From assembly GCA_963778565.1 (NCBI GenBank), contig CAVZUZ010000012.1, positions 432,578 to 496,577 on the forward strand: 64,000 nt of DNA. Reading direction: 5' to 3'. Below the pieces are notes generated by a model. The model was not told the DNA's origin. It saw nothing but the letters and a program-made list of their open reading frames with translations, and searched no databases. Origin of the DNA: Thermoanaerobaculaceae bacterium (GTDB lineage Bacteria; Acidobacteriota; Thermoanaerobaculia; Multivoradales; UBA5704). A program made the position numbers and the translations under genes. Below are positions 2,603 through 56,450 of the stretch, in pieces. How positions within the stretch are numbered: the first letter of the stretch is position 1; the number at the start of each line of letters is the position of its first letter.

Positions 2603-2805
2603 GCCACCCGTGATCGTCGCAGATCGTGTCTCTTGCTTGGAGAAACGCTCGCCTTCTCATCTCTAAGAGATTCTTTTGTTGGCGTAGCCCCGCTCGCCCC
2701 AGGACACGAGGCGATTGACAGGCTCATGCTCCTCCCCCCGCTGCGGAACGAACAGGTGTGTCACCCGGAACCGCAAGCCGGAAAACGGGCGACGAGGTGT
2801 AGTTG

Positions 2806-3000
2806 CTAACTCTGAGTCACGGAGTCAAAGAGAATTTGGTGGAACGCGTCGAGGAATGGCCGGGCGTCCATGGCGTCCATTCGCTGCTCACCGGCGAGCC
2901 GATGACCGGCATCTGGCGCGACCGGTCGGCGGAATATTTCGCCCGCCGCCGCAGCAAGAAGGTCGAGCCTCGCCAGTTCGTAACGACCGACGACGGAGGC
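2806..3000 (+). pseudogene. Possible internal fragment of a Y1 (IS200/RayT-like) transposase-family gene
   Basis: The translation ..VKENLVERVEEWPGVHGVHSLLTGEPMTGIWRDRSAEYFARRR.. resembles, from memory, the region after the catalytic domain of REP-associated tyrosine transposase-like proteins. It is preceded by an in-frame stop and no catalytic HUH/Y motif is present. Confidence 0.25.
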
Positions 3001-3098
3001 CGCCTTGAAGGAGGGAACCGCCGGCACGCCACGGCGTGCCGGCACGTGTATGACAAGCCCCCTCTTTCTGACACTTGTGGAGATTCCGAGACGTTCGG

Positions 3099-3662
3099 TT
3101 AGCTGACCGTGATCGTCGGATCCCAGATGAAGTAGCCAAACAGCTCTTGCGTCAGGTTGTCATCCTTCAAGAAATACTGTGCGAAGCTGAGATCGAAAGA
3201 TTCCGTGCCGGACCTCTTGACTGCGGAATTATAGGAGGCGAAAGAGATCTTCTGCAAGGCAGGCGGAACTCCAGTGCCCTCCGTAGGCACGACGGCGTAA
3301 TCGCGCTCTACAAAGTTCTGCTGGAATTGGTTGAATACATCGTCACCCTTTCTTTTCGTGAAGCCATACACGATCACCGCTGAATTCGCGTTGGCCTCGA
3401 TCGAAGTGCCGACGAAACTAACAACGTCGGTAACTTTGGCTTTGAAATGCAGGTTGTAAGCTCCCTGACCACTGACGATGCCCCGTGAGCTGTCACAGAT
3501 GAAGCGCAGGCTGTCGTTAAGACTAGAGGGAAGCGGAGTTGGCTCCGCCATTTGTTGGCTGGGAGGTGTTTTGCTGTCTTTGCACCAGGTTGCGATCGCA
3601 GCAGTGTCAACTACGAATAGAATGTGAATGTTCTCTAGTGGAGTGCTGGTCATTTCGTCCAT
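3099..3662 (-). CDS. AidA/PixA-type inclusion-body family protein (putative)
   Basis: AGGAGG lies 6 nt upstream of the ATG at 3662. The motifs NIHILFVVDTAAI, SRGIVSGQGAYNLHFKAKVTDVVSFVGTSIEANANSAVIVYGF and a C-terminal WDPTITVS match my recollection of the PixA/AidA family. The G+C content is visibly lower than in the flanks. Confidence 0.6.
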   Translation of the reverse strand: MDEMTSTPLENIHILFVVDTAAIATWCKDSKTPPSQQMAEPTPLPSSLNDSLRFICDSSRGIVSGQGAYNLHFKAKVTDVVSFVGTSIEANANSAVIVYGFTKRKGDDVFNQFQQNFVERDYAVVPTEGTGVPPALQKISFASYNSAVKRSGTESFDLSFAQYFLKDDNLTQELFGYFIWDPTITVS

Positions 3663-3913
3663 CACGGACCTCCTGGGAGTTTTTCCCGTTCTTGGTTCCC
3701 GAATCGCTTGGCCGTTGAATCACCGACGCCACGCTGGCGTCGTTAGGGCTCGCCACGAAATAAGTGCCTCATTTGCCGATTTTTCCCCCTTGTAGATGCT
3801 GGCGGGAGAGAATCGACTATGAGCCAGTTATTTTGTGGCGAGCCCTTAGCGTAAGTGTGCGCCGCGTTGCTTTAGCTTGAAAGCTCTTCCTCTTCCCCAG
3901 CCTGCATCTACAC

Positions 3914-4189
3914 CTAAGGGTTAATCCGTGTGATGTCGGTGATATGAGGATCGCCATCGAATGGTGCATAGACGTAGATCAGTGCCGCGAGCTCAGGTTG
4001 CCCAGGATAAACAACTTTCCCTTCGCAGAGGAAGCAGTAGTTTAGCCCGGCGACGACCTGAGTGGCAAAGGCCAGTGGGGTGTACTGTACCCCCTCCAAA
4101 CCCTTCAATGCCCGATCGAATACGTTTTTCGCTTCGGGAGTGATGGTGAAGCTGAAACTACCCCATGCGCCAAGAAGAGTGCGTGACAT
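3914..4189 (-). CDS. Small (91 aa) cystatin-like protein with a QVVAG motif
   Basis: A strong SD (AAAGGAGACATT) precedes the ATG at 4189. ATQVVAGLNYCF carries the cystatin QxVxG signature. The ORF-track start at 4321 has no SD. Confidence 0.7.
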   Translation of the reverse strand: MSRTLLGAWGSFSFTITPEAKNVFDRALKGLEGVQYTPLAFATQVVAGLNYCFLCEGKVVYPGQPELAALIYVYAPFDGDPHITDITRINP

Positions 4190-4492
4190 AATGTCTCCTT
4201 TTCTCTGGTTTTTCGCGGCGCTTGCACTGGCCGGCTCGATGGCCGCTGATCTGTCGTGGTCGCCGTGGTCGCCGTGATGTCTACGGTTGGACAAAAGCAA
4301 GGGATGTGCCAGACAAAGCACAGAGGGGAAATAATTTATGGGCGGTTGTCAGCGACAGCTCCGACTGTCGGGCCGGGCTCTCCGACAACCTCCGACAACC
4401 TCCGAGCCCCTGGAGACGAGACGTGTTACCCTTGGCGCACGCCTTGCACAAAGCGTTGGAGAAAGACGTTCGCAACCCAACGGAGAACGATC

Positions 4493-4966
4493 ATGACCGA
4501 GTATGTCTGGGAGCTTGGAATCGATTGGAACGCGATTGAAACCGTGGGCGTGAGCTACCTGCGTGGAGGCCTTGTCAAGAAGGTCGACGGCGAACCCGAC
4601 GTGCCCTTGCCGGGCACTGCGCCGGTGGAGCACGACGACCAAATCACCTTTCGGATCTTTGATGTGAGCTCATCTGAGCAGGTGGCCGAGGTCGGATCTT
4701 TCGTCATCCTCACGAAGGCAGCGGTCAACGGCCAATTGTTTGACAACCCGTTGAGCTCCCTCCAGCCCGAGATCACGCCGGACGACCCAGCCGCTTCTCC
4801 GAGCCTGCTCGGAAGCGCTCGCCGCTCCTGGACCTGTTCGCCGGTGACGGTGACGGCTTCTTCGGGGCGTTTTCTGCTGACCACTCAAGTGCAGGCGATT
4901 GGGCCTGATGACCGGGTACGCCTTTTCAGCCATGATCCCGAAATGGTCGTGGGGCCGTTCGAGTGA
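4493..4966 (+). CDS. Hypothetical protein (157 aa)
   Basis: GGAG SD (GGAGAACGATC) lies before the ATG at 4493. The composition looks coding, with no recognised motif. It ends ..HDPEMVVGPFE, faintly like the WDPxITV end of the AidA/PixA-like neighbour. Confidence 0.6.
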   Translation: MTEYVWELGIDWNAIETVGVSYLRGGLVKKVDGEPDVPLPGTAPVEHDDQITFRIFDVSSSEQVAEVGSFVILTKAAVNGQLFDNPLSSLQPEITPDDPAASPSLLGSARRSWTCSPVTVTASSGRFLLTTQVQAIGPDDRVRLFSHDPEMVVGPFE

Positions 4967-22425: not shown

Positions 22426-23613
22426 TCACATCCCGTTGTGGACGGTCACTGAGGTGAACCCGTCCGTCTCCACCACCAAGTCCGGATTTCCGTTCTGGGC
22501 CAGCATTCGCCTCACGAGACGAATACCGCGGCCGAGTTGTTCGACGTAGCCCAGCTCCACAAGCCATCTTGTGATGGTGGGATTGCGATAATCCGCGTGG
22601 CGACCGAACTCCCCTTCGCTGGCCTGGCCAAAAGGTCCACCAGGGTTTGAGAATGCAATGCGGTTGTTGAACCACTCGACCCTTCCGGGTGCGTGAGTGC
22701 CCTCGTACAGGCGATGTTGGACCAGGTTGCGGGCCAGCTCCCGAAGAGCCTCCAGGGGATACTCGGGCCGATAGAGAGTCCGTATACCCTCGGCTGAGGC
22801 CGGGATACTGACGAGATGGGCGTTGAGCTGCGCCCAGAGCGCTTCGAGTTGTTGAGGTATCGTTCCGTCAACGCTCTTGCGGACGGCGACGGCGGCGTCC
22901 ACCTCGGTGCCCCGGTAGCGTACGAACTCGACCACGGCCCCGGGGAAGAAAGCTTGCGGGTTTTCGCCGAATAGCAGCAGCGCTGCAGCGTTAGGAGTCC
23001 AGGTTCCTTCGACCGTGCGCCCCAAGTCCTTACGGGACAACCAGGCCTCGATTCCGGGGAAACTTTCGGGATCGTGATTGGCCTCCTTGGCGGCCTCATA
23101 CATCGGCCGCAATACAGTCTGTCGCAGGTCCTCTAGGGTGGCTCCATGAACAAGGCGGTAGTCGAAGGGCTGGCGGTTCTCCGGCCGCCTCTCGCGAAGC
23201 CGAAGAAGATCCGATTCACGAGCCCGCTCGGTGACCGTGCCTCTGCGGATCCATGCCGTGCCATCCACAGCCACGACGGGGGGGACGGGATAGGGATCAA
23301 TCCTTACCACGAGCACGGTCTTGCCGTCTTGTTCCACCGGCTCCATGCTGTATGTGGGAGTCGGCAACAGTCTGATCGATGAGAGGCGGCTCGCCAGCTT
23401 CTGCTGTTCATCATCGAGATCCCCCTGAAGACCGACGATCCTCCCGTCGTCGGCAAGTCCCAGGACGACAAAACCTGGTCTGCGGCTGTCTCCCAGGTCA
23501 TTGGCCAAGGCACAGACGGCGTGGAGAATACCGTTCACGTCTGCCGTGGATTGTTTCCACTCGACGCGCTCGCTCTCTCCTGCCAGAACTTCAGCGCTCT
23601 CTTTTAGTGTCAT
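22426..23613 (-). CDS. AlbA_2 (Schlafen-like) + HATPase_c_4 domain protein (COG2865-type putative regulator)
   Basis: ESERVEWKQS...ILHAVCALANDLGD...GFVVLGLADDGRIVG is AlbA_2/divergent-AAA-like. The C-terminal ..NLVQHRLYEG...YRNPTITRWLVELGYVEQLGRGIRLV is HATPase_c_4/HTH-like. Confidence 0.75.
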   Translation of the reverse strand: MTLKESAEVLAGESERVEWKQSTADVNGILHAVCALANDLGDSRRPGFVVLGLADDGRIVGLQGDLDDEQQKLASRLSSIRLLPTPTYSMEPVEQDGKTVLVVRIDPYPVPPVVAVDGTAWIRRGTVTERARESDLLRLRERRPENRQPFDYRLVHGATLEDLRQTVLRPMYEAAKEANHDPESFPGIEAWLSRKDLGRTVEGTWTPNAAALLLFGENPQAFFPGAVVEFVRYRGTEVDAAVAVRKSVDGTIPQQLEALWAQLNAHLVSIPASAEGIRTLYRPEYPLEALRELARNLVQHRLYEGTHAPGRVEWFNNRIAFSNPGGPFGQASEGEFGRHADYRNPTITRWLVELGYVEQLGRGIRLVRRMLAQNGNPDLVVETDGFTSVTVHNGM

Positions 23614-28467: not shown

Positions 28468-28584
28468 GGCCGCCCGGGGCTCCCGCCCTGGGCTATCGAG
28501 ACGTCGCCCGGAGGGCGAGGGGTCGGAGCCTCGCTTCGGAGAAGCGACGTTTCGGTAGCCCGCGGCGGGAGCCTCGGGCGGGGA
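28468..28584. repeat. Type C palindromic repeat (arms CGCCCGG.GCT.CCGC.CTGGGCTATCGAGACGTCGC / inverse), copy 1
   Basis: It is an inverted repeat between the pspA stop and the AAA+ start. Related copies lie at 50879..50976 and 56355..56450. Confidence 0.8.
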
Positions 28585-45218: not shown

Positions 45219-46229
45219 CTACTCCCAGATCTTGACCTCGAACCTCCCCGCCGAATCCGCCGCTCCCCGGTACATCCCTTCCGAGTTGTAGACCAGCACG
45301 AGCGAGCCGTCCCGGGAGACGCCGATCACACCGCCGTCCCCGGGCCTGAGCTTCTGCCGGATCACCCGCTCCGCGGCCTGCTGCAGGGTCAGGCCACCGT
45401 ACTCCATCAGCGCCGAGACGTCGTGCGCCACGGTGTGGCGGATGAACTGCTCGCCGATGCCGGTGGCGGAGATGGCGCAGGTCCGGTTGTTGGCGTAGGT
45501 GCCGGCGCCGATGATCGGCACGTCGCCCAGCCGGCCGAACCGCTTGTTGGTGAGCCCGCCCGAGGAGGTCGCCGCCGCCAGGTTGCCGTGCACGTCGAGC
45601 GCCACCGCGCCCACCGTATCCTTGTCCTGCTCCTGCTTCTTGATCGCCTCCTGCAACTGCTGATAGCGGAAGGCCGTGTCGAAGTACGCGTTCGGCACGC
45701 GCTCGACCTTCATCTCCGTGGCGAACGCCTCGGCTCCCTCGCCGACCATGAAGACGTGGGGCGATTTCTCCATCACCATACGCGCCAGCGTGATGGGGTT
45801 CTTGACCGTCTTGAGCAACGCCACCGAGCCGCAGGAGAGATCGCGGCCGTCCATGATGGCGGCGTCGAGCTCGTGGGTCCCCTCGTGGGTATAGACGGCC
45901 CCCTTGCCGGCATTGAACAGCGGATCGTCCTCCATGAAGCGCACCACCTTCTCCACCGCGTCCAGGCTGGTGCCGCCCTGCTGGAGCACGCCCTGGCCGA
46001 CCTTCAGAGCCGCGGCCAGGGATTGCAGGTACTGCTGCCTGCGCTCCTCCGGCAGGGTCTTCGGAATCGTGCCGGCGCCGCCGTGAATGGCGATGGCCCA
46101 CCGCGGTGCGCCCGCCGGGCGGAGCACGATCTCCGCCTTGTCCTGCTGTTGCGCGGCCGCCGGCTGGGCCGTGGTGAGAAGGGGAAAGATCGAGAAAAAC
46201 AACATGGACGACAGAGTCTTGCAGTTCAT
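45219..46229 (-). CDS. Isoaspartyl peptidase / L-asparaginase (Ntn-hydrolase, asparaginase-2 family), secreted
   Basis: AIAIHGGAG, DPLFNAGKGAV, DTVGAVALD (autoprocessing Thr), ATSSGG and GAGTYA. A signal peptide is present. Confidence 0.9.
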   Translation of the reverse strand: MNCKTLSSMLFFSIFPLLTTAQPAAAQQQDKAEIVLRPAGAPRWAIAIHGGAGTIPKTLPEERRQQYLQSLAAALKVGQGVLQQGGTSLDAVEKVVRFMEDDPLFNAGKGAVYTHEGTHELDAAIMDGRDLSCGSVALLKTVKNPITLARMVMEKSPHVFMVGEGAEAFATEMKVERVPNAYFDTAFRYQQLQEAIKKQEQDKDTVGAVALDVHGNLAAATSSGGLTNKRFGRLGDVPIIGAGTYANNRTCAISATGIGEQFIRHTVAHDVSALMEYGGLTLQQAAERVIRQKLRPGDGGVIGVSRDGSLVLVYNSEGMYRGAADSAGRFEVKIWE

Positions 46230-46376
46230 GGCGGGGGGATTCTAGGCGTTCCACCGCGGCAGAATCCACTGCGGCGAAATCGCGGCGGCGCGATCGTCAC
46301 GCCGTTCGCAGCTCTACTCGCGGGATGCAGATGTACGGTCTGGCAGCGGGGTGAGGCTCGGCTGGAACAGCGGTCG

Positions 46377-46547
46377 TCAAACGGGCTGGTGGTTTTCCTC
46401 TGCCGCTTCCGCACCGGGCTCTTGCGGCTGCTCACCAGGGACCGCGGCAGTCTTTCTCTCGAGCTTGCGCTGAAACTTCTCCTCCCGCTTCTGTTTCTTG
46501 GCAACTTCACGTTGACGCTTAAAGAATGAAGCACGATTTCTTGGCAT
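46377..46547 (-). CDS. Small basic protein (56 aa)
   Basis: GAGGGGGG SD lies before the ATG at 46547. MPRNRASFFKRQREVAKKQKREEKFQRKLERK.. is Lys/Arg-rich. Confidence 0.5.
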   Translation of the reverse strand: MPRNRASFFKRQREVAKKQKREEKFQRKLERKTAAVPGEQPQEPGAEAAEENHQPV

Positions 46548-46684
46548 ATGACGCACCCCCCTCATGAGGTGATTGGACGGTAGGCGCGTAGCTCCTGCCA
46601 CAGAACAGCGCACCCTCTTCGCTGTTTCCTCAGTGTATCACGTAGCCGCGCCGTCAGGCCGCGGGGACGGCGGGACGTCTTCCT

Positions 46685-46942
46685 TCAGATCGTCTCTTCC
46701 GCGATCAGCTCGCGCACCCGCAGGCGGCCGACCTCCAGCTCCTGAATGACCAGCCGGTCGATCGCACCGGATTTCAGGGCGAATCGCTTCACCGCCAGGC
46801 GCCCGATCGCCAGCGCTCCAATGGCCAGGGCGCCTATCGACAGGGCACCGACGCTCACCGCCGCCAGCGCCGTGGCGGCGCGCGCGAACGCCATCTGCGA
46901 TCCTGCTCTGGGATAGGTCATTTCGGTTCGTTCTCGGTTCAT
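46685..46942 (-). CDS. Small membrane protein (85 aa)
   Basis: GGAGGTGGAG SD lies directly before the ATG at 46942. The TM stretch is AAVSVGALSIGALAIGALAIG, followed by an amphipathic tail. Confidence 0.6.
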   Translation of the reverse strand: MNRERTEMTYPRAGSQMAFARAATALAAVSVGALSIGALAIGALAIGRLAVKRFALKSGAIDRLVIQELEVGRLRVRELIAEETI

Positions 46943-47059
46943 CTCCACCTCCAATCTTGAGCCGACATCGTACCCGTAGAGACGTTCCAGCCCGCCCAAG
47001 ATACCCATCGCAGGCCACGGGGACGGCGGAACGTCTCCTCGAAGGGTTCGCGGCTGTGA

Positions 47060-47377
47060 TCATCCGGCAGAGCGACGACCGGAGCCCCTCCCGATCTCCC
47101 GCTTGGCCGTAGCAAAGGCGGTCTCTTCCAGCTCGATTCGTTCACGAATCACCTGCGTGAGCCAGTCCTCGACTCGCCCGGCATGATGGAGACGGGCGAG
47201 GAAGGCCGCGCGAGCAGCAAGATCTCGCGGGAGTGCGAAGGAAGTTCGGGCGGAAGGCTCAACCTTGACCGGCGCCTCCCACGCCGCGTCGTTGTCAGCC
47301 TCCGCGATGACGATCTCGTCAATTTCCTCTTCGGACAGTCTCTTCGATCGTGTGGATTCTCCGCTCATAGGGGCCAT
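47060..47377 (-). CDS. RHH/CopG-like antitoxin-type protein
   Basis: ..EEEIDEIVIAEADNDAAWEAPVKV..TSFALPRDLAARAAFLARLHH..VEDWLTQVIRERIE resembles CopG-type antitoxins with a C-terminal RHH. Confidence 0.5.
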   Translation of the reverse strand: MAPMSGESTRSKRLSEEEIDEIVIAEADNDAAWEAPVKVEPSARTSFALPRDLAARAAFLARLHHAGRVEDWLTQVIRERIELEETAFATAKREIGRGSGRRSAG

Positions 47378-47564
47378 CCTGTGATGATTCGGACAATCCT
47401 CTGTGTCTTAAGCTGAAAGATGATCTTGCGGTCTGCCGCCGACTGGGGCACTCTCCTCCCGCCCGTGGCGCAACCTCAGCGATCGCAAGAACATCAAATC
47501 CTGCCGAGCGCAATGCCCTGACAACCGCGAAGTCGCAGCCTTCGTCAGCCAGGAAAGGGGGCAT
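47370..47564 (-). pseudogene. DUF5615 (Mut7-C/PIN-like) toxin-type gene, truncated or frame-broken
   Basis: MPPFLADEGCDFAVVRALRSAGFDVLAIAEVAPRA matches the DUF5615 N-terminus. Homology is then lost, and an alternative frame gives only ..ADRKIIFQLKTQRIVRIITGWPL*. Confidence 0.55.
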
Positions 47565-47581
47565 CTGTCAGCATGCGGAAG

Positions 47582-47809
47582 TTATTGCGGTAGGAAGATG
47601 GTCTCTTCATGGGCAATGGTGTCTGCCGCATAAGCGACGGCTGCACGGATGTCCTCGCGCTGAAGGCGCGGATAGGCGTCCAAGAGGTCGTCTTCGGTCG
47701 CACCCTCGCTGATTTTGCGCAGCAGAAGCTCGACGGGTATTCGGGTTCCTCGGATAACGGGCTTTCCCATCATTACCTTCGGGTTGATCTCGATGCGATC
47801 TGTAGTCAT
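47582..47809 (-). CDS. DUF433 antitoxin-type protein (75 aa)
   Basis: INPKVMMGKPVIRGTRIPVELLLRKISEGATEDDLLDAYPRLQREDIRAAVAYAA is a DUF433 signature. The ATG is at 47809. Confidence 0.85.
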   Translation of the reverse strand: MTTDRIEINPKVMMGKPVIRGTRIPVELLLRKISEGATEDDLLDAYPRLQREDIRAAVAYAADTIAHEETIFLPQ

Positions 47810-47906
47810 GATCTGGGCTACCTCAAACCATCCTCCGCCTGCAGGGCTATATTGGCACTTCCTCTCACCTCCGTCCAGAGAGGGACATCGCCTCAAGCCT
47901 ACTCTC

Positions 47907-50831
47907 TCACCACCCCTTCGCCGCCTCCTCAGCATCCGCCAGCTCCCCGTCCCGCCGGTGGTAGCCATGCTTCTCGATCAACCGGCGGGCCTCGGCCAGC
48001 GCGGCACGGTCGCGGAAGAGGCGAGCGCGATAGAGCTGAATGTCAGCCTGGAACAGCGGCATCGGCCCCCGCTCGGCGATCTCCCACGCTTCGTCCAGGT
48101 CTGCGCGGCAACCCGGCTCGTCGCAGGAGAGACATCGCAGCCAAGCACGAGTCAGTAAGACGAGAGGCAAGCGGCTAACGTCACCGGACGCGCGGAAGCC
48201 CTTGACGGCGGCGGTCATGTGGTCGAGCGCGGCGTGCCGGATGGGAAACGCGGAGTGGGCCTTGTACAACGTGACTCGGACAAGCGTGAGTTCGATCAAA
48301 GCAATATCAAGAAGTGAATCGTCAGGTACTCGCCATTCAATCCACTGACGGGCTCGTTCTCCGACGGTGTCGCAGGCGGCAATAGATGCCGTAAGCATCC
48401 CATTGGGTCCAGTCTCCTTGTTAAACCAACGTTGCCACTCCGTGCGTTCCGCGTCGGCCAACAGAAGATCGCAGTATAGGAAGCCTTGCAGTGAGTAGAG
48501 TCGAGGGTAAGTCGGCTGGCGCGCGGCTTGCCGGGACTCCGCGTCCTCAAATAGACGCCGCGCCTCAGTGCGACGGCCCGCCTGGTGTAGAGCCGCGGCC
48601 AGTAACGTGCGGCGGCCCAGTTGCTGAAACAAGTCCCCGCTGAGGTCAGCATACATCACCGACTGCTCGCCAGCAGCTACCGCCACGGCGATCTCACCCC
48701 GCGTGAGTTCCAGGTCGCTCAGGTTGCCAGCGTTGATTGCGGCTTGTTTCCATTCCTTATCTTGGACGTGCATCGCCAGCCCAGCCCGCATCGGCTCGAC
48801 CGCCTCGGTCAGTCGACCAAGGGCTCGCAATCTGTAGGCCGCCTCGCTGAGCAGCCAAGCTTGGACGACGGGCGCAAAGTTCGACGCGAAGATGGCCCAC
48901 GGTGTCGTAAAGAAACACGCCACCGCCCCCAGGTCCGCACCGATTGCGCCGAGCTTCTTCACGCTGTAACCCTCGCCGCACCGCAGTATGCGATCGCTGT
49001 AGACATCGTCACCCGCCCGCTGGTGCAACCCGGCCAGACAAGCGTGGGCCACGGCCTGGTACAGCGGCTGGAGACCTTCGATTCCCTCCGGCCAGTACGG
49101 GGCTGTGCCGCTCAGGTGCTCGAACAGCCGTCGGTGGCCGGCTTGCCACGCCGCCGGAAACCGCGTCCGCACCTGTTCGACAAAACACTCGCGCAGCAGT
49201 GGATGAGCATCCACGGCCGGCGATCTGTCCGGTCCAGCGAAGTCGATCAACCGCAAGTCGCGCAGACGGTTGAGCACGCGGTTCCACTGCGACTGCGGGA
49301 GATCCAGCAACGGCGCGCTTACCTCAGCCAGCGAGTCCTCGATACGATTCGACAGAGGCCGCTTGTCGGCCGGTTTGTCCTCTTTCGGCCACTCGTAAAC
49401 CACCGCCTCCCGCGCACGGAGCACGTCGAGGAGCTGCCGCTCGGCAGCGCGGTCAAAGAAGCCAAGCAGACGCAGCACCGCGACCTCGGGACTGTCATCG
49501 CCAAGATGGCGCACGTAGGCCGCGAACATCTTTCGGGCGTGGCCCTGGTGCTCGGTGTCCTCCTCCAGCAGCACAACCTCGCCCCGGCGGCGGATATCGC
49601 GGTGGTCCGTCGCGTTCTTCAGGAACGAGCCAAGTAGCATCAGCGAGTAGGCATGCCCGTGAAACTCGTCCGACGCCTGCCGCAGCTCCTCGTCCGGACC
49701 GACGACCTGAAACTCCCGCAACAGCTCCACCCCGTCGTCGCGATGCAGGTGGTCGAGCGACTGCTGGATGACCGTCGCGCCCTCGCGCGCCTCCAGCTCG
49801 ACCACAGGCTGCCGCGAGGTGATCAGGCACAAGCCGCGCGTTTCGGCGTGAGGGACGTTGGCCAGCGACAGCAGCAATCGTGCGATGCCGGGATCTTTCA
49901 GACGGCCACGCTCGGCATGCAGCGGGGGATGCTGCAAGGGTTCGAGGCCGTCGAGCACTAGCAACCCGTGGTGCTCGACGAGCAACCGGGCCAGCGCGCG
50001 TCCCCGTTCATCGGCCTGGGTGATCGGCTCGCCGCGATAGCCGAAGCAGGCGAGGGCTTGCTCGAAGAACAGCTCGGACGATGCATTACGCCGCTCGTCG
50101 CTCCCCTGGCTGTAGAACGAATGTACGAACACCCGCCGCGCTCCACGCCAGCCGTCATCGCGCATCCGCCGCAGCCACTCGACCACCACCCGCGTCTTGC
50201 CCGCCCCGCCCTCGGCATGCAGCGCGAAGATCCGTACCCCCTCCGACCACGCCCGATCCAGCGCCGCCAACTCCTCGCGCCGTCCGACGAAGCCCTCACC
50301 GTAGATGCGGAGCTCATCGGTCCATTTGGGTTCGATGAATTCGGCCGGCTCCTCTTCGGGTTCGTCGGACTTGTTGGGATGCGCTCCGGCATCGGCCCCA
50401 AGCCTCTGCAGGATCAGCCCGGCGATATCGGACGCGGGTCGGCTGCCAATGTCTACGTGGCCATCGCCCACTAGGATGCCGAGCTCCGAGAGATCACCCG
50501 GTGACCCGAAGCTCACCAGCATGATGCGGTCCTCATCGAGCGTCGCGATGAGCTGCCGGATGTGCCGCCACTCAAGCTGGCACCATCTCTTCGCCGCATA
50601 CGCCGGACAAAGGAAGATGACGATCAGCTCGGACTGCTCGCGGTACAAGCGGGGCAGATAGACATCGAGGTTGACCCGAGCGAGCTCGGCTTCATGGAAC
50701 TTGTCGTACAGCACCCGCTCCCGGTCGACCGCGGCGGAAAGATGCTCGGCCACCTGCTCGACGAACGCGCGATGCTCGCCGGGAAACGACAGGGCGATGC
50801 GGAAGCGCCGAGGGGAACCCGATTCGGACAT
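47907..50831 (-). CDS. TIR-domain STAND (NB-ARC-type) NTPase with a C-terminal TPR-like sensor region; an NLR-like protein of 974 aa
   Basis: The TIR-like N-terminus is FRIALSFPGEHRAFV...SELIVIFLCPAYAAKRWCQLEW (Glu retained). The NTPase has FVGRREELAALD, Walker A AEGGAGKTRVV, Walker B LLVLDGLE and CLITSRQ. About 500 aa of helical repeats follow. Confidence 0.85.
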   Translation of the reverse strand: MSESGSPRRFRIALSFPGEHRAFVEQVAEHLSAAVDRERVLYDKFHEAELARVNLDVYLPRLYREQSELIVIFLCPAYAAKRWCQLEWRHIRQLIATLDEDRIMLVSFGSPGDLSELGILVGDGHVDIGSRPASDIAGLILQRLGADAGAHPNKSDEPEEEPAEFIEPKWTDELRIYGEGFVGRREELAALDRAWSEGVRIFALHAEGGAGKTRVVVEWLRRMRDDGWRGARRVFVHSFYSQGSDERRNASSELFFEQALACFGYRGEPITQADERGRALARLLVEHHGLLVLDGLEPLQHPPLHAERGRLKDPGIARLLLSLANVPHAETRGLCLITSRQPVVELEAREGATVIQQSLDHLHRDDGVELLREFQVVGPDEELRQASDEFHGHAYSLMLLGSFLKNATDHRDIRRRGEVVLLEEDTEHQGHARKMFAAYVRHLGDDSPEVAVLRLLGFFDRAAERQLLDVLRAREAVVYEWPKEDKPADKRPLSNRIEDSLAEVSAPLLDLPQSQWNRVLNRLRDLRLIDFAGPDRSPAVDAHPLLRECFVEQVRTRFPAAWQAGHRRLFEHLSGTAPYWPEGIEGLQPLYQAVAHACLAGLHQRAGDDVYSDRILRCGEGYSVKKLGAIGADLGAVACFFTTPWAIFASNFAPVVQAWLLSEAAYRLRALGRLTEAVEPMRAGLAMHVQDKEWKQAAINAGNLSDLELTRGEIAVAVAAGEQSVMYADLSGDLFQQLGRRTLLAAALHQAGRRTEARRLFEDAESRQAARQPTYPRLYSLQGFLYCDLLLADAERTEWQRWFNKETGPNGMLTASIAACDTVGERARQWIEWRVPDDSLLDIALIELTLVRVTLYKAHSAFPIRHAALDHMTAAVKGFRASGDVSRLPLVLLTRAWLRCLSCDEPGCRADLDEAWEIAERGPMPLFQADIQLYRARLFRDRAALAEARRLIEKHGYHRRDGELADAEEAAKGW

Positions 50832-50878
50832 GGTCCCTTATTATGAAAGAGGCGGAAGGCTGAAGGACAGCCGTCTTC

Positions 50879-50976
50879 CGCCCAGCGCTTCCGCACTGGG
50901 CTATCGAGACGTCGCCCTGAGGGCGATTGCTCCAGAGGAGCAACGTTTCGCTAGCCCGGTGCGGGAGCGCCGGGCG
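50879..50976. repeat. Type C palindromic repeat, copy 2 (a partial extra unit lies near 51047..51100)
   Basis: CGCCCAGCGCTTCCGCACTGGGCTATCGAGACGTCGCC...TAGCCCGGTGCGGGAGCGCCGGGCG, about 50 nt upstream of the TIR-STAND start. Confidence 0.8.
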
Positions 50977-51133
50977 CGAGGCGACGGCGACCTGCCTGCC
51001 GCCACCCCTTCGGGGCTGCTCGGGAATTTGAGACCCACCGTTCCTGGGGCTGGCGCCCCAGGCTACATGCCGTCGCCGCTTTGCGGCGAAACTTGGCGCA
51101 GATTCCGCGCGAGACGCGCTGACTTGAAACCCC

Positions 51134-51583
51134 TCACTCCCGCCGCCGGTTCGAATTGTCCATATCCGACATGATGAGCCACCTCCCGTCCGAGCCCTTG
51201 CGCAGCGTCAGCGTGAACTTCCCATCGTCCGGCTTCCCGGCCGCCCCGGCGTAGCCGCCGATGATGTATCCCACCTTGCCCTCGGCCGCGTAGGCGATGG
51301 CCCGCAGCGACAGCGGTCCGCCGTGTCCCGTGTAGTGCTTCTCGATCGCCGCCCTTCCGCGCACCGGCAGCCCTCCGTTCGGCAGCACGAAGCCGTCCTC
51401 GGCGAACAGGCTTGCCAGCGCCGCCGCGTCTCGCTGCCCCCAGGCAGTCTCGTAATCCCTCAGCACTCGCGCCAGGTCCGGCGGCAGCGTCACGGAAGGC
51501 TCGGCTGCCGGTGCCGCCTGTTGGCCGACCGCCGGTATGGCCAGTACCAAGATCATGAGGAGCGTTCCTGCTGTTTTGCGCAT
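51134..51583 (-). CDS. SnoaL-like/DUF4440 (NTF2-fold) protein, secreted
   Basis: A signal peptide, then ..WGQRDAAALASLFAEDGFVLPNGG.PVRGRAAIEKHY...GKFTLTLRKGSDGRWLIMSDM is a DUF4440-like pattern. Confidence 0.7.
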   Translation of the reverse strand: MRKTAGTLLMILVLAIPAVGQQAAPAAEPSVTLPPDLARVLRDYETAWGQRDAAALASLFAEDGFVLPNGGLPVRGRAAIEKHYTGHGGPLSLRAIAYAAEGKVGYIIGGYAGAAGKPDDGKFTLTLRKGSDGRWLIMSDMDNSNRRRE

Positions 51584-51597
51584 AGTTGTGGTCTCCC

Positions 51598-52536
51598 TTA
51601 CTGCTGATGCACGGCCGGTTGGACGCTTTCGAGGTGGTCCTCGATCAGCCCGACGAGCTCGTTCACGATATCGGTTTTGCGCGCGCCCACGTGCTCCGTT
51701 TCGGTCCAGATGAGCGTCTTGGGCTCGCCGGCGCGGTCGAAGAGTGCCTGGACTCCAGGGACCGAAAAGTACTTGTCCCGCCGGCTGGACACCATCACCA
51801 GCCGGCGCGGCGCGATGCGGCCGATGTAGCGCCCGGGCTCGAAGCTGTCCACCAGGACGGCCGCCGTGCCGGCCAGCAGCTCTCCCCGCCAGAAGCGGCC
51901 CCTGCGACGTTCGTAGCCGCGCAGAGTGGCGGGAAAGTCACCGCCGCCGTGTACCAGGAGGACGGTGCCGACACGCGGATCCAGGGCGCCGTGGATGACG
52001 GCGAAGCCGGAGCCCAGGCTGGCGCCGAGCACGGTGATCCGGTCCATCCCCAGGCCCTCGGTCTCCTGAAGATAGCTCAGCGCCAGCATGCCCCCGGCCA
52101 CCGCGCGGAACACCGCCCGGCGAAGGTGATACGGCCCGAAAAGGTACTCCGCCGGCGTCCGCGGACGCGTGAAGGGATACTGGACCGCGACGAGAACCAC
52201 GTCCGGCCGATCGGGGATCAGGCGCAGGATCTGTGCCCCGGTCTTCTCCCCGGCGTAGGTGAGGAGAATCCGGTAGCCGTTGGAGAGCCGGCGCGGCGTG
52301 CGCACATAGGCGGTGGCGACCGCCTCGCCGCGATCGTTGTGGAGCTCCACCAGGCGCGTCCGGGAGGCCGGACCGGTGGACGCCTCAAGGACGCGGGCAC
52401 CGCTGTACGTGCCGCGGGTGAGATAGAACTCGTCGGTCTTGTCGGCGCGGAGGAAGAAGACCAGGCCCGTTGCTGCGATCACCAGCGCCGCAAGGACCGC
52501 GAGAAGAATCCGGCGCCGCTTGTTCTTCCGGAGCAT
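51598..52536 (-). CDS. Alpha/beta hydrolase (dienelactone-hydrolase-like), membrane anchored
   Basis: An N-terminal TM, the nucleophile elbow GASLGS, LLVHGGGD and a late His (TETEHVG). Confidence 0.7.
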   Translation of the reverse strand: MLRKNKRRRILLAVLAALVIAATGLVFFLRADKTDEFYLTRGTYSGARVLEASTGPASRTRLVELHNDRGEAVATAYVRTPRRLSNGYRILLTYAGEKTGAQILRLIPDRPDVVLVAVQYPFTRPRTPAEYLFGPYHLRRAVFRAVAGGMLALSYLQETEGLGMDRITVLGASLGSGFAVIHGALDPRVGTVLLVHGGGDFPATLRGYERRRGRFWRGELLAGTAAVLVDSFEPGRYIGRIAPRRLVMVSSRRDKYFSVPGVQALFDRAGEPKTLIWTETEHVGARKTDIVNELVGLIEDHLESVQPAVHQQ

Positions 52537-52548
52537 GGTTTCCTTCCG

Positions 52549-53061
52549 TCATATTCTACTCCGCCGCTGCGGCCGCTTGTAGAGAGCCTCGCGTTTCGCC
52601 GTTCCCTTGCGGGCGAGCTCGAGCCGGCCTTCGGCAAGCATGCGCCGCAAAACGTCCGAGGCGGTTCGCGATCCAACGGGTTCGGCTAAGTGGCCGGCGT
52701 AGCGGCGGCTGGTCTCCTCCGCGACGGCGGCGGGGCCGAACGGCTCTTGCAGGTCCGGACTCCCGGCGACCAGCTCCACCATCCGGCCGACCCTCTTCCG
52801 GCCAGGAGGCGGAATCTCGGCCTCCGCGCGTCTCGGCACCGGCTGGGCCGCCGCCGAGTCGGCGACGGTGCGGAAGACCTCCAGGTCCTGCACGACCTTC
52901 TCCAACTCGGCCACGTGGAGCGCCCGCTGCTCCCGGTGATGCACCACTTGCTGGGTATGAAAGGCCTCCTGGTCACGATGGAAGGCCTCCTTCTCGCGAT
53001 GCAGCGCCGCGCGCGCCTCCAGATTGGCCACCACGTCCTCGACGGAGAGCTTCGTGCCCAT
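52549..53061 (-). CDS. Hypothetical protein (170 aa): His/Gln-rich coiled coil with a possible C-terminal winged-helix
   Basis: Coding-like composition. The C-terminal ..TASDVLRRMLAEGRLELARKGTAKREALYKR is wHTH-like (weak). Confidence 0.5.
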   Translation of the reverse strand: MGTKLSVEDVVANLEARAALHREKEAFHRDQEAFHTQQVVHHREQRALHVAELEKVVQDLEVFRTVADSAAAQPVPRRAEAEIPPPGRKRVGRMVELVAGSPDLQEPFGPAAVAEETSRRYAGHLAEPVGSRTASDVLRRMLAEGRLELARKGTAKREALYKRPQRRSRI

Positions 53062-53125
53062 CGCCCCTGGTCCTTGCCTCCATTGCGGTGAACCGTCCGA
53101 GAGACGATATCACGCCGGATCCCAT

Positions 53126-53432
53126 TTGCAGTGAATCAGGTTGTCTTGCGGTGAATAGCTTCAGTTGCGGCACAGAACGCGGCTTGCGGTGAACAAGGCC
53201 AGTTGCGGCCCCTTATTCGAGTTGCGGCGCAGAAGGCGAGTTGCGGCAAAGAAGCCTGTCTTGCGGTGCATGACCCTAGACGCGGCGCAGGAGGAGAGTT
53301 GCGGTGAAGAACGCCGTTCACTGCAAATGAACGCGAGACGCGGTGAAGAAGGCGAGACGCGGTGAAGGAGAGGAGATGCGGTGAAGCGCCCGCTTCGCCG
53401 CAAGTAATTCCAGTTGCGCCGTAGAAGCTTCG
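53126..53432. repeat. About 16 tandem 19-20-bp units, consensus TTGCGGTGAAGAAGGCGAG, with two units inverted
   Basis: Unit starts lie at 53126, 53146, 53165, 53184, 53203, 53222, 53241, 53261, 53280, 53299, (inverted 53316), 53337, 53356, 53375, (inverted 53393) and 53414. Confidence 0.9.
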
Positions 53433-53437
53433 CGGTC

Positions 53438-55108
53438 CTACACCCGCCGCAGCAGCACCAACGTCTGGTCGTCTCCCTGAGGGAGGCCGCGGGAGTGCTC
53501 GCCGACGGCGCGGAGGATCTCTTCGATCAGCTCCGAGAGAGGCCGGCCGCGCTCGCGGCGGAGAAGCTCGATCAGGCCGTCCATGCCGAACTCCACGTCC
53601 TCCGACGACTCGGCCTCGGTGATGCCGTCGCTGTAGATGCAGAGCAGGTCGCCCGGCTCCAGCGTGACGGCGCGGGACTGGTAATGGGCCTGCGGGAGCA
53701 GCCCCAGCGGCACGCCGCCCGCGCCGAGCAGCTCGACCGCGCCATCGCCGCCATCGCCGCCATCGCCGCCATCGCCGCGATTGCCGCGATTGCCGCGCAG
53801 CAGGATGGCGGGGTTGTGGCCCGCATTCATGTAATGCAGGACGCCGGTATGCGGATCGAGCTCGGCCAGCATCATGGTGATGAACTTGTTGGCGGCGCTC
53901 GACTCGACGATGTGCCGGTTCAGTTTTTCGAGCAGGGCCGGCCCGAACGGGTTATGGTCCAAGAGCAGGCGCAGGGCCGAGTGCAGCGTCGAGACCATCA
54001 GGGCCGCCGGCATGCCCTTGCCGGAGACGTCCCCCAGCACCAGGCCGATCCGCCCGTCGCGGCGGGGAACGAGATCGTAGTAGTCGCCGCCGATCTGCCG
54101 CGCCGGACGGTACCAGCCGGCCAGCTCGAATCCCGGCACGACCGGCGCGCCCTTGGGGAGGATCTGGCGCTGGATCTCGGCCGCGAGGTGCATCTCGCGC
54201 TCCAGACGCTCCTTCTCCAGGGCCTGCAAGTGGAGGCGGGCGTTTTCGAGAGCGAGCGCCGCCTGGTTGGCGAAGAGCGCGAGCGTGCGCCGGTCCGCCG
54301 GCAGGAAGGGACCGACCCCCCGGCGGCTCTCCTTGTCGCCGACCGCGATCAGACCCCGCGGGCCGGCTTCGACCTCGATCGGCACGCCCAGCAGATAGCG
54401 GGTTCCCGGCAACAGCTTCGGCGGCGCCGGTCCGCCGCCGGCGAGGAAGGCGTGCAGCTCCGGATTCTGGACGGAGAACGACGGCGCGGCATCGCCGCCG
54501 AACGTGCGGTCCAGGCGGTAACGGCCGTCTTCGCCATCGTCGAGGATGTAGAGGGCGCCGCGCCGCGCGTCGAGCAGCCCGACGGCGCGCAGGAGGATCT
54601 CTTCCGACAGCCGATCGAGGTCGAGGGTCGAGGCCACCGCGAGACCCACGTCGTAGAGGGCCTCCAGCTCCACCACCCGGTAGTTCACCTGGAACTGCTG
54701 CTCTTTCAGGTCCTGCTTGAGGCGGCAGCTCTTGAGGGAGGAGGCGAGGAGCAAGGTCAGGGGATCGCTCATCGCCTGAGCGGTCTCGCCCCGGTCCAGG
54801 GCTTCGCGAGGCGCGAAAAAGAGCCGGCCGCCCGGGAAGGAGAGACTGCCGTAGTCGCCGGCCGCGCCGCCGTCCTCGAGAGCCTCGGGCAGGCCGTCGC
54901 CCACGGCGGCCTCCCGCACCAGCACCTCTCCTCGTTCCAGGTAGAGGCCGGCGGCCCCGGCACCGTGTTCCTGGCGCCAGAGATCGAGCAGCCGCTCGAG
55001 CAACTGACGCTCGCTGGTCTCGTCGCGGGAGAGGGCCAGCAGTTCGTCCCAGGCCCGCGCTACCGTGCCGGCCGTTGCGGAACCCTCCATCTCAGCTCCC
55101 GGTTTCAA
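53438..55108 (-). CDS. GAF-domain SpoIIE/PP2C phosphatase (RsbU/RsbP-like)
   Basis: GGDYYD, VLGDVSGKGMPAAL, NAGHNPAILL, IYSDGITEA and GDDQTLVLLRRV. The N-terminal part is GAF-like. An internal GNRGNRGDGGDGGDGGDG insert is present. Confidence 0.85.
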   Translation of the reverse strand: MKPGAEMEGSATAGTVARAWDELLALSRDETSERQLLERLLDLWRQEHGAGAAGLYLERGEVLVREAAVGDGLPEALEDGGAAGDYGSLSFPGGRLFFAPREALDRGETAQAMSDPLTLLLASSLKSCRLKQDLKEQQFQVNYRVVELEALYDVGLAVASTLDLDRLSEEILLRAVGLLDARRGALYILDDGEDGRYRLDRTFGGDAAPSFSVQNPELHAFLAGGGPAPPKLLPGTRYLLGVPIEVEAGPRGLIAVGDKESRRGVGPFLPADRRTLALFANQAALALENARLHLQALEKERLEREMHLAAEIQRQILPKGAPVVPGFELAGWYRPARQIGGDYYDLVPRRDGRIGLVLGDVSGKGMPAALMVSTLHSALRLLLDHNPFGPALLEKLNRHIVESSAANKFITMMLAELDPHTGVLHYMNAGHNPAILLRGNRGNRGDGGDGGDGGDGAVELLGAGGVPLGLLPQAHYQSRAVTLEPGDLLCIYSDGITEAESSEDVEFGMDGLIELLRRERGRPLSELIEEILRAVGEHSRGLPQGDDQTLVLLRRV

Positions 55109-55458
55109 GCAGCCCGCATCTGGGCCACCGCCGCCGCCTCGTCGCCGAAGATCGGCGCGTACTGCGCGAGGCCCATGATGTGGAAGGTCTTCTCGATCGT
55201 CGGCGTCAGGCAGCAGAACCCCAGCTTGCCGTTGATCTCGATCATCTTCTCGATGATCTCGATCAGGATGGAGATGCCGATCGAGTTGACGATCTTGGTG
55301 CCGGCCAGATTGAGCAGCAGCACCTTATAGCCTGCATCGAGGAGCTCGTAGGAGACCTTGGCGATCTCCTCACCCCCCTGGTTGTTGATATAGCCCTCGG
55401 TGTAGATCACCGCCAGCCCATCCCGGCGATCCACCGTCACGTTGAGGCTCTCGGTCAT
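55105..55458 (-). CDS. STAS-domain anti-sigma-factor antagonist (RsbV/SpoIIAA-like)
   Basis: The length is 117 aa. ..LLLNLAGTKIVNSIGISILIE.. has the phosphorylatable Ser context (NSIG). The stop overlaps the next start. Confidence 0.8.
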   Translation of the reverse strand: MTESLNVTVDRRDGLAVIYTEGYINNQGGEEIAKVSYELLDAGYKVLLLNLAGTKIVNSIGISILIEIIEKMIEINGKLGFCCLTPTIEKTFHIMGLAQYAPIFGDEAAAVAQMRAA

Positions 55459-55474
55459 CGGCTCGCCCCCGCTT

Positions 55475-55906
55475 TCATCGCATCTTACTCATTACGACAG
55501 TCGTTCCCTCGGTGCCGGAGCGGATTTCCACCTCGTCCATGAGCCCGCGGATGATCTTCAGCCCCCAGCCGCGCTTGCGGACCGCCTTGAGTTTACTCTC
55601 GATGTTGGGCGGCTCCACCTCTTCCGGAACAAAGCCGATGCCGTTGTCGTGAACCATAATGCGCAGCTTCTCCGGATCCCCCTCGCCGACGACCTGGAAG
55701 GTCACGAAGACCTCGCGGTCGGAGGCGCCGCTGTGCTCCAGGGCGTTGATGCAGGCCTCCACCACCGCCATCCGCACCTCGTCGATTCTATCCGGACTCA
55801 TGCGGATCGACTCGGCGATGGCGGTCGCCGTCTTGCTCGCCTCGATCTCCATCTCGGGGACCATCGGGAGCGCCAGCGTAACCTCCCTCAGAACGCCTTC
55901 AGCCAT
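55475..55906 (-). CDS. Anti-sigma regulatory Ser kinase (RsbW/SpoIIAB-like, HATPase_c_2)
   Basis: EACINALEHS (N-box), VHDNGIGF (G1) and RGWGLKIIRGLMDEV (G2). Confidence 0.85.
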   Translation of the reverse strand: MAEGVLREVTLALPMVPEMEIEASKTATAIAESIRMSPDRIDEVRMAVVEACINALEHSGASDREVFVTFQVVGEGDPEKLRIMVHDNGIGFVPEEVEPPNIESKLKAVRKRGWGLKIIRGLMDEVEIRSGTEGTTVVMSKMR

Positions 55907-56133: not shown

Positions 56134-56354
56134 CTCCTTGAAGCCGCGTTGTCGTACCCGTAACTATTTCGTTTCCAAGCTGTTGCAGACAACGAGCGGC
56201 AGGGTCTCCCAAGATGCCCCACAGGGAGCCGCGACAATTTGCCGCAGGCCGGGACGCTACGCCTCCGGTGAACCCCGGCGAATGCCCATCCTGCCGCGGT
56301 TTGGTGATGTTTAGGGACAAAAAGTCGCTGATGGGTAAATTTGTCGCGGCCCTC

Positions 56355-56450
56355 GCCCGGCGCTTCCGCACCGGGCTACAGAGATGTCGCTCCTCTGGAG
56401 CGATCGCCCTTGGGGCGACGTTTCGATAGCCCGGTGCGGAAGCGCCGGGC
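56355..56450. repeat. Type C palindromic repeat, copy 3
   Basis: GCCCGGCGCTTCCGCACCGGGCTACAGAGATGTCGC...CGATAGCCCGGTGCGGAAGCGCCGGGC. It abuts the activator stop at 56452 and may act as a terminator. Confidence 0.85.

Follow-up and report, generated by a model that had tools for sequence, protein, structure and literature searches.

A TIR-STAND-TPR protein from a variable locus of Thermoanaerobaculaceae belongs to a modular family of putative NLR-like sensors

We analysed a 64,000-nucleotide stretch of contig CAVZUZ010000012.1 from a Thermoanaerobaculaceae bacterium (hereafter the window). On its reverse strand lies a complete gene whose 974-residue product combines an N-terminal TIR domain, a central STAND NTPase and a C-terminal TPR-like sensor. 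An earlier note on this DNA had proposed that the gene follows the effector-switch-sensor plan of NLR (nucleotide-binding leucine-rich repeat)-like receptors, and this plan holds on every testable point: a TIR domain, a STAND fold with its motifs, and a TPR-like solenoid. The single open reading frame (ORF) has the coordinates reported for it and contains each of the quoted peptides, namely FRIALSFPGEH (residues 10–20), KRWCQLEW (81–88), AEGGAGKTRVV (206–216), LLVLDGLE (290–297) and CLITSRQ (335–341). The window copy is full length and uninterrupted, with all catalytic motifs intact. We suggest that the gene probably encodes a single-chain immune or conflict sensor of the NLR-like kind, a ligand-triggered and ATP-dependent oligomerising NADase that would lead to abortive infection or cell death. 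The features discussed here are listed in Table 1.

The TIR domain is recognised by Pfam TIR_2 (PF13676), which matches residues 12–109 with 35.8 bits (E = 1.3e-8) and passes the curated cutoff of 28 bits; TIR_2 is also precomputed for most homologs of the protein. In the AlphaFold2 model of the full-length protein (63-sequence alignment; mean predicted local distance difference test score (pLDDT) 85.6; predicted TM score (pTM) 0.72), the alternation of strands and helices spans residues 10–145. Among the homologs whose N-terminus aligns, Trp83 is kept in 23 of 23 and Glu87 in 21 of 22. Hidden Markov model (HMM) alignments place W83-C-Q-L-E87 opposite WCLDE of RUN1 and WCVRE of RPS4, and the glutamate of these motifs, which aligns with Glu87, is the catalytic one of plant TIR NADases. 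A TIR-only profile searched against the PDB found the TIR of 9m0n as the best solved relative (E = 9e-4, chain residues 17–129), with RPS4 and RUN1 next. The claim of a TIR-like module that retains the glutamate at the catalytic position is thus borne out by the Pfam score and by the conservation of that residue, and the domain is predicted from these alignments to be NADase-competent, with Glu87 at the catalytic position. It is joined to the NTPase by a linker for which pLDDT falls below 50 at residues 147–163.

The central region has the fold of a STAND NTPase. When the full model was compared with solved structures by Foldseek, the best match was the STAND-TPR protein of P. horikoshii (6mfv; E = 2e-11, 836 aligned columns), followed by Apaf-1 (3sfz and 1z6t; 4e-9), Avs3 (8dgc; 4.6e-7), MalT (1e-6), CED-4 (about 1e-6) and the NB-ARC domain of NRC1 (3e-5), all at probability 1.00, with ORC/Cdc6 and NOD2 lower in the list. 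The nucleotide-binding domain (NBD) carries a Walker A motif (GGAGKT, 208–213), a Walker B motif (LLVLDGLE, 290–297) and the sensor-1 arginine Arg340 in TSR (338–340). The helical and winged-helix domains (HD-WHD) carry GHAY (392–395) at the position of GLPL in NB-ARC proteins, and DAHPL (541–545) with an MHD-like His543 at the MHD position. Across 63 homologs, Walker A, Walker B, the sensor-1 arginine, GHAY and the WHD histidine show little or no variation.

Profile matches to this region are weak. Pfam AAA_16 (2e-4), AAA_22 (0.007) and NACHT (0.06) all remain under their cutoffs, NACHT (PF05729) with 13.6 bits against a gathering score of 26.7. NB-ARC (PF00931) has no match at E ≤ 1 in the query and is missing from the precomputed domains of 120 of 120 listed homologs. 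Searches of PDB sequences with either the single sequence or the 63-sequence profile returned no STAND protein and only marginal TIR matches; a match to a designer-PPR repeat was judged spurious. Because of this, STAND membership rests on fold and motifs. The proposed STAND P-loop NTPase is thereby retained, and its NB-ARC label, for which Pfam gives no match, is dropped. As modelled, the central region is a divergent STAND module, nearest by predicted fold to Apaf-1/CED-4 and to MalT-type proteins.

The C-terminal third consists entirely of helical repeats of TPR type. It measures about 415–430 residues (from residue 545 or 561 to 974), somewhat less than the roughly 500 first estimated. A separate model of residues 545–974 is of high confidence (pLDDT 94.1, pTM 0.91) and contains about 20 helices. 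Its Foldseek matches are LGN/Pins TPR (E = 5e-5, TM 0.40–0.48), MalT domain III (E = 1e-4) and Rap/NprR (TM about 0.45–0.55), and no Avs sensor is found among the top 50. At the level of sequence, the query has a weak TPR signature (TPR_14, E = 0.57); TPR_12 and TPR_MalT are present in homologs. The earlier view that the sensor is unlike any described Avs sensor is borne out among solved structures, where only generic TPRs match. Such likeness to generic TPRs is no evidence for a new trigger, although a new trigger is possible.

Two regions of the sensor stand out. The first is a hypervariable patch, with column entropies in 20-residue windows of 3.07 (801–820), 2.39 (821–840), 1.48 (841–860) and 2.43 (861–880) against a domain mean of 1.70, over which pLDDT dips locally. 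It is a candidate specificity surface. The second is the C-terminal cap, RGPMPLFQAD...HGYHRR, which nearly all complete copies of the family retain in the form RGxMxLxxxD...GYxRR and which may be a structural or autoinhibitory element. Sensor blocks 581–600 and 921–940 are as conserved as Walker B.

Table 1. Coordinates of the TIR-STAND-TPR gene, its domains and nearby features in the window
Feature	Position	Strand	Details
Complete TIR-STAND-TPR gene	47907..50831	-	974 aa, ATG start; from the ORF list
TIR domain, residues ~9–145	50397..50807	-	Pfam TIR_2 match; alternating beta-alpha elements in model
Disordered linker, residues 146–180	50292..50396	-	Ends in KWTDELRIYGEGF; module-exchange junction
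P-loop nucleotide-binding domain, residues 181–375	49707..50291	-	Foldseek matches and motifs
Helical and winged-helix domains, residues 376–560	49152..49706	-	Model secondary structure, motif conservation
TPR-like superhelical sensor, residues 561–974	47910..49151	-	C-terminal model and Foldseek
Hypervariable patch in sensor, residues ~797–880	48192..48443	-	Column entropy
Imperfect palindrome, 167 nt	50845..51011	.	67 predicted pairs; just 5' of the start codon; copy like a repetitive extragenic palindrome (REP)
Rfam Acido-Lenti-1 (RF01687) match	51043..51088	+	40.4 bits; gathering score 37
Variable islet, ~7.2 kb	46230..53437	.	Between asparaginase gene (45219–46229) and SpoIIE-GAF gene (53438–55108)
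DUF433 (antitoxin-like) gene	47582..47968	-	Pfam DUF433, E = 3.9e-23 over residues 59–114
Truncated DUF5615 (PIN-like toxin) remnant	47319..47564	-	Residues 4–32 match profile positions 3–31 of 110, E = 0.012

To analyse the distribution of the family, we used a word-indexed search, which returned at least 1,299 homologs, mostly from Thermoanaerobaculia metagenome-assembled genomes (MAGs), the best at 74% identity. Scanning a single genome for each GTDB species gave 341 loci in Acidobacteriota, Planctomycetota, Verrucomicrobiota, Gamma- and Betaproteobacteria, Myxococcota, Actinomycetota and one Methanophagales MAG. The distribution is patchy across phyla, and several genomes hold two to three copies. 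With the sensor alone as query, 3,919 representatives of 50%-identity clusters were recovered at E ≤ 1e-3 and 1,337 at E ≤ 1e-30.

Domain architectures were compared in 81 family loci or copies (79 genome loci plus L162 and L163). The NTPase and the sensor form the conserved unit of the family, and the effector varies in both type and position. An N-terminal extension of at least 90 residues is present in 62 of the 81 copies and a C-terminal one of at least 120 residues in 16; some copies have both, such as L016/P0083 with effector domains at either terminus. The 62 N-terminal extensions contain TIR_2 (32), TIR (10), DUF4062 (8), SEFIR (7), Mrr_cat (3), ThsB_TIR (3) and PNP_UDP_1 (2), with occasional HTH or ParA-like domains, and the 16 C-terminal extensions contain TIR_2 (12), SEFIR (3) and PNP_UDP_1 (1). 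In one subgroup (L008, L011–L015, L017, L056 and L063; for example L012, 7998–10895), only about 13 residues precede the NTPase and the TIR or SEFIR domain lies C-terminal of the sensor. A recent study reports DUF4062 to be a TIR-like NADase (10.64898/2026.05.01.722283). A recognised defence effector is present in at least about 53 of the 81 copies. Lee et al. (2026) regard a STAND clade as defence-associated if at least 50% of its members have a known defence effector domain or if it is enriched near defence genes (PMC13581612), and the effector share in our own sample lies above that 50% threshold. Effector swapping on a constant core is a pattern typical of the Avs and bNACHT families.

The nucleotide-binding signature is nearly universal in this sample. 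GGxGK[TS], LDGhE, [TS][TS]R and DxHPL are retained in nearly all 81 copies; the exceptions are two incomplete copies without the Walker A stretch (L031, at a contig end, and L053) and one copy that lacks the histidine of DxHPL. The NTPase is therefore under selection to remain active.

Tandem same-strand paralogs occur at nine of the 81 loci: L162 (10001–15765), L016 (7899–14481), L043 (4117–10589), L050 (3437–10364), L047, L070 (three copies), L038, L046 and L053. At L016, L043, L050 and L162, which come from different phyla, a long copy bearing an effector is followed, after 0–30 bp or with an overlap, by a short copy without one. These short copies keep their Walker motifs. At L162 the first copy carries a C-terminal PNP_UDP domain and the second has 811 residues. 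By analogy, such effector-bearing and effector-less pairs may recall the paired sensor and helper NLRs.

Between close orthologs the sensor is 61–69% identical and the NTPase 79–84%, so the sensor evolves faster. Across 59 distant copies, mean identity is 46.9% for the sensor versus 38.3% for the NTPase, with the sensor higher in 50 of 59. Column entropy is nearly the same for the NBD (1.67), HD-WHD (1.71) and sensor (1.70). The less ordinary traits (effectors at either end, sensor conservation at the level of the P-loop and operonic effector-less pairs) are traits of the family and not of the window gene, which has no paralog within the window.

The gene lies in an islet that is variable between close relatives. 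In about 20 Thermoanaerobaculia and Holophagales genomes, loci around asparaginase orthologs show the SpoIIE and asparaginase genes less than about 150 bp apart, and an insert of 6–8 kb at this junction was found only in the window and its three nearest relatives (L082, L083 and L084). The gene is therefore accessory and not part of the syntenic core; the earlier note had asked whether it might be a universally conserved core gene, and at this junction it is absent from about 20 relatives. Gene order is shuffled inside the insert. The flanking genes of the orthologous loci are 78–89% identical, versus 71–74% for the TIR-STAND gene.

Comparison of the orthologs also reveals exchange of modules, which among three orthologous loci takes place at one junction, KW(S/T)DELRIYGEGF. 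The L083 ortholog has the identical architecture at 74% identity. At L082 (4863–5963) the TIR is kept (85%) and fused to an unrelated tail of about 185 residues, with NTPase and sensor lost. At L084 (5061–7978) the NTPase and sensor are kept (71–87%), but the TIR in front of them is another one, of DVFLSH type, and the gene carries a frameshift near position 6017. Absence from the SpoIIE junction and the rearrangements at L082 and L084 mark the gene as accessory and of fast turnover. The last 36 nucleotides 5' of the ATG show 89–92% conservation, both in the syntenic orthologs and in a single paralog (L063).

On one side, the islet is bordered by PmbA/TldD and asparaginase genes. On the other side of the TIR-STAND-TPR gene are genes for a DUF4440/SnoaL protein, an uncharacterised 312-residue protein and a 170-residue protein, and then the SpoIIE-GAF and STAS genes. 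No conserved partner gene adjoins the family copies in the window, L080, L081, L162 or L163. When 115 neighbour ORFs from 15 family loci were searched with PADLOC, all matches were generic (kinase and sigma-54 activator models, for example), so we do not claim enrichment in defence islands. A search of IMG/VR viral contigs found no relative, and plasmids yielded the TIR module alone. Outside the family, the nearest TIR module is encoded at L164 on a Bradyrhizobium conjugative plasmid (NZ_CP088281.1, 255156–256169), where it forms the C-terminus of a 337-residue protein (47% identity). Its operon partners are a protein with a dsDNA-nuclease domain, a ThiF-type adenylyltransferase and an MPN/JAB protein, and the operon looks like a defence cluster of the CBASS-ancillary type.

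Toxin-antitoxin-like genes lie just downstream of the TIR-STAND-TPR gene, and they differ between loci: DUF433 and a DUF5615 stub in the window, DUF2442/DUF4160 in L080 and L081. The long DUF433 ORF (third-codon-position GC content (GC3) 0.64) runs into the 3' end of the STAND gene, and its true start is likely Met54 at about 47809. The DUF5615 ORF looks truncated, since the match is limited to the start of the profile, and no continuation was found in other frames. Described before as toxin-antitoxin remnants, the pair proves to be mixed, for DUF5615 appears truncated and DUF433 is intact.

We then propose a model for the action of this protein, in which ligand-triggered oligomerisation, NADase activity and a role in phage defence are inferred from plant TNL (TIR-NB-ARC-leucine-rich-repeat) resistosomes, Avs and bNACHT proteins. 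Apaf-1, the plant TNL resistosomes and bNACHT proteins are models for the proposed sequence of activation. Avs proteins provide a further one (PMC13581612). At rest, the TPR-like solenoid and an ADP-bound NBD-HD-WHD would hold the protein inactive as a monomer. The solenoid would bind a trigger (most likely a phage protein), with the hypervariable patch probably setting specificity. Binding would release the lock, permit nucleotide exchange and allow oligomerisation through the STAND module. The oligomer would cluster the N-terminal TIRs into composite active sites around Glu87, which would cleave NAD+, and either depletion of NAD+ or an ADP-ribose (ADPR)-type product would bring about growth arrest or death of the infected cell, that is, abortive infection. 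For the family as a whole, a function as cell-suicide or immune sensor is very probable.

Among known systems, the protein is most readily compared with Avs/AVAST and bNACHT proteins that carry TIR effectors. These likewise have a single chain in which a STAND NTPase is joined to an effector and to a large sensor of helical repeats, swap effectors (TIR, nuclease, PNP and others) on a conserved core and are encoded by accessory genes, and Avs3 is among the fold matches. However, the window protein has no PADLOC match, its NACHT score is sub-cutoff and its sensor is unlike solved Avs sensors, and the family described here also places effectors C-terminal, after the sensor. Plant TNLs such as Roq1, RPS4 and RUN1 share the order TIR-STAND-repeat sensor, the aligned catalytic glutamate and a nucleotide-binding oligomerisation (NOD) fold of the Apaf-1/CED-4/NB-ARC type. 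They differ in having leucine-rich repeats where the window sensor is TPR-like, and the window protein is unmatched by Pfam NB-ARC and has LDGLE in Walker B instead of DD and GHAY instead of GLPL. To our knowledge, bacteria have no EDS1/helper pathway like that of plant TNLs.

The MalT-type STAND-TPR proteins (6mfv; MalT 8bob and 1hz4) include the structure that the full model fits best; the sensor resembles MalT domain III, and one homolog (P0116) carries Pfam TPR_MalT. In contrast to these, the window protein has a TIR enzyme as output and no DNA-binding output, and similarity to them is absent at the sequence level. The 824-residue "Tetratricopeptide repeat protein" of PDB 9m0n/9umd combines an N-terminal TIR with TPR repeats and provides the closest solved TIR by profile, but the similarity is confined to the TIR, and the structure is not within the top 50 fold matches of the full-length model. 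A literature search for 9m0n/9umd returned no relevant paper.

Several observations weigh against an immune NADase. The PADLOC search suggested by the earlier note was run on the 974-residue protein (v2.0.0) and matched no defence-system model: no family was found at E ≤ 1, the AVAST/Avs and TIR-NLR models included, and the NCBIfam scan of the protein gave zero matches. The 115 neighbouring ORFs at 15 loci reveal no clear defence-island enrichment; relatives are absent from IMG/VR contigs, and plasmids carry the TIR module only. Across phyla, sensor and P-loop domain are conserved to the same degree (entropy 1.70 versus 1.67; sensor identity above that of the NTPase in 50 of 59). This makes the sensor less variable than expected of an arms-race receptor, and a conserved non-phage ligand would also fit. 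Finally, depletion of NAD+ by the TIR and production of a signal are both compatible with what can be read from the sequence.

The conservation of the sensor leads to the idea that the protein is a switch for programmed cell death or kin conflict that responds to a conserved cellular or small-molecule cue rather than a phage-specific pattern-recognition receptor, to which we give a small chance. Such a cue would suit a sensor conserved like the NTPase across phyla, a C-terminal cap present in almost all complete copies, and nearest folds that include the ligand- or peptide-binding TPRs MalT domain III and Rap/NprR. Members concentrate in Acidobacteriota, Planctomycetota, Verrucomicrobiota and Myxococcota with large genomes, often with several copies per genome, a pattern reminiscent of the conflict systems described for "multicellular" bacteria (PMC7159879). 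A clear defence-island context was not found. However, the sensors of close orthologs diverge faster than their NTPases and contain a hypervariable patch, as in immune receptors, the effector repertoire is the standard antiphage set, and within their families, Avs sensors that recognise conserved phage folds are conserved too (PMC13581612). With the cap near-invariant and the solenoid, from Acidobacteriota through Gammaproteobacteria to an archaeal MAG, conserved like the P-loop, it is tempting to go further. The solenoid might read a universal cue, possibly host-derived and of guard type, and the bacterial pairs might form sensor/helper hetero-oligomers analogous to paired plant NLRs, a departure from the conventional "variable sensor, constant effector" scheme that we think unlikely.

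The output may also be of another kind. With the same architecture, the TIR could make a diffusible ADPR-derived signal for an effector encoded elsewhere, in the style of Thoeris or plant TNLs, and not kill by depletion. Thoeris and plant TIR domains are signal generators (10.64898/2025.12.03.692087), and three family members have an N-terminal domain of ThsB_TIR type. Yet the same work leaves out TIRs that are fused to Avs-type proteins, since these probably deplete NAD+, and in this family modules that are directly toxic (Mrr nuclease, PNP and the DUF4062 NADase) can take the place of the TIR, which implies a self-sufficient killing domain. Together with the absence of a conserved adjoining effector gene at the five loci named above, this favours a self-contained toxic output over a Thoeris-like relay, which we consider rather improbable. 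As for the SpoIIE-GAF and STAS genes, which are upstream of the gene in both the window and L080, they are followed in the window (53438–55906, reverse strand) by a 143-residue ORF, and in L080 by a HATPase_c_2 kinase in its place, giving a partner-switching module in the same order. This arrangement, the truncated toxin gene nearby and the rearranged or frameshifted orthologs L082 and L084 could suggest a regulator tied to that operon or a decaying, non-functional relic in a junk islet. We regard both as very improbable, given that the window ORF is full length with intact catalytic motifs and a conserved 36-nucleotide leader and that a Pfam scan found no DNA-binding or partner-switching domain in the protein. 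A functional tie to the SpoIIE/STAS operon was rejected: SpoIIE directly adjoins asparaginase without the TIR-STAND gene in about 20 genomes, most of the relatives, so the linkage is positional and not functional.

Bacterial fusions of TIR with AP-ATPases and repeat domains have long been known, going by the mention of Leipe et al. (2004) in a later article (PMC7159879). Of the 589 prokaryotic STAND clades distinguished in a 2026 survey (Lee et al. 2026, PMC13581612), 198 are defence-associated, mostly with TPR-like sensors. The architecture being two decades old and the STAND clades so numerous, the protein adds to an established class. If the proposed immune function is correct, the family would be a source of NLR-like receptors from soil Acidobacteriota, Planctomycetota and Verrucomicrobiota, in which phage defence is almost unexplored, and one that defence-finding HMM sets at present miss. 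Effectors at either terminus of a constant core would be a natural experiment in STAND oligomers that activate effectors from both ends, and the operonic effector-less paralogs one for possible bacterial sensor/helper pairs. For annotation, the signature of an LDGLE Walker B, DxHPL and a C-terminal RGxMxL...GYxRR would flag several thousand "hypothetical" proteins.

The palindromic repeat reported in front of the gene is present. The 302-nucleotide upstream spacer folds with −170.4 kcal/mol, compared with −132 ± 5.7 for shuffles (z = −6.8). The repeat is also dispersed: a hairpin core of about 100 nucleotides recurs in intergenic positions at 56354–56450 and 28470–28581 (80–90% identity) and upstream of the L084 ortholog. 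Since the window holds three copies, the repeat is not specific to the gene, and a role as gene-specific operator was rejected. A simple scan for promoter and terminator signals around the gene found none above shuffles.

Further upstream, the spacer that separates the TIR-STAND gene from the DUF4440 gene contains the match to Acido-Lenti-1, a two-hairpin motif. This match covers the perfect palindrome CTGGGGCGCCAGCCCCAG at 51044–51061, of which the window has one exact copy. Similar hairpins are located directly 3' of STAND homologs in L006, L011 and L037, so the match may be terminator- or REP-like rather than a dedicated small RNA.

The base composition of the gene had been described as visibly lower in GC. 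The difference is real and modest rather than striking: the gene has a GC content of 0.651 and a GC3 of 0.774, the core neighbours a GC3 of 0.84–0.93, and the toxin-antitoxin-like genes just downstream a GC3 of 0.64–0.66. Elsewhere in the window, a gene at 22426–23613 (reverse strand, GC3 0.69) encodes a 395-residue protein that combines a Schlafen AlbA_2 domain with HATPase_c_4; this gene, too, may have been acquired horizontally. The patch of lowest GC in the window (0.54–0.59) is at 2273–4966, especially 3099–3665 (reverse strand), and contains a gene for a protein of the PixA inclusion-body family (E = 6e-35) together with several ORFs without a Pfam match.

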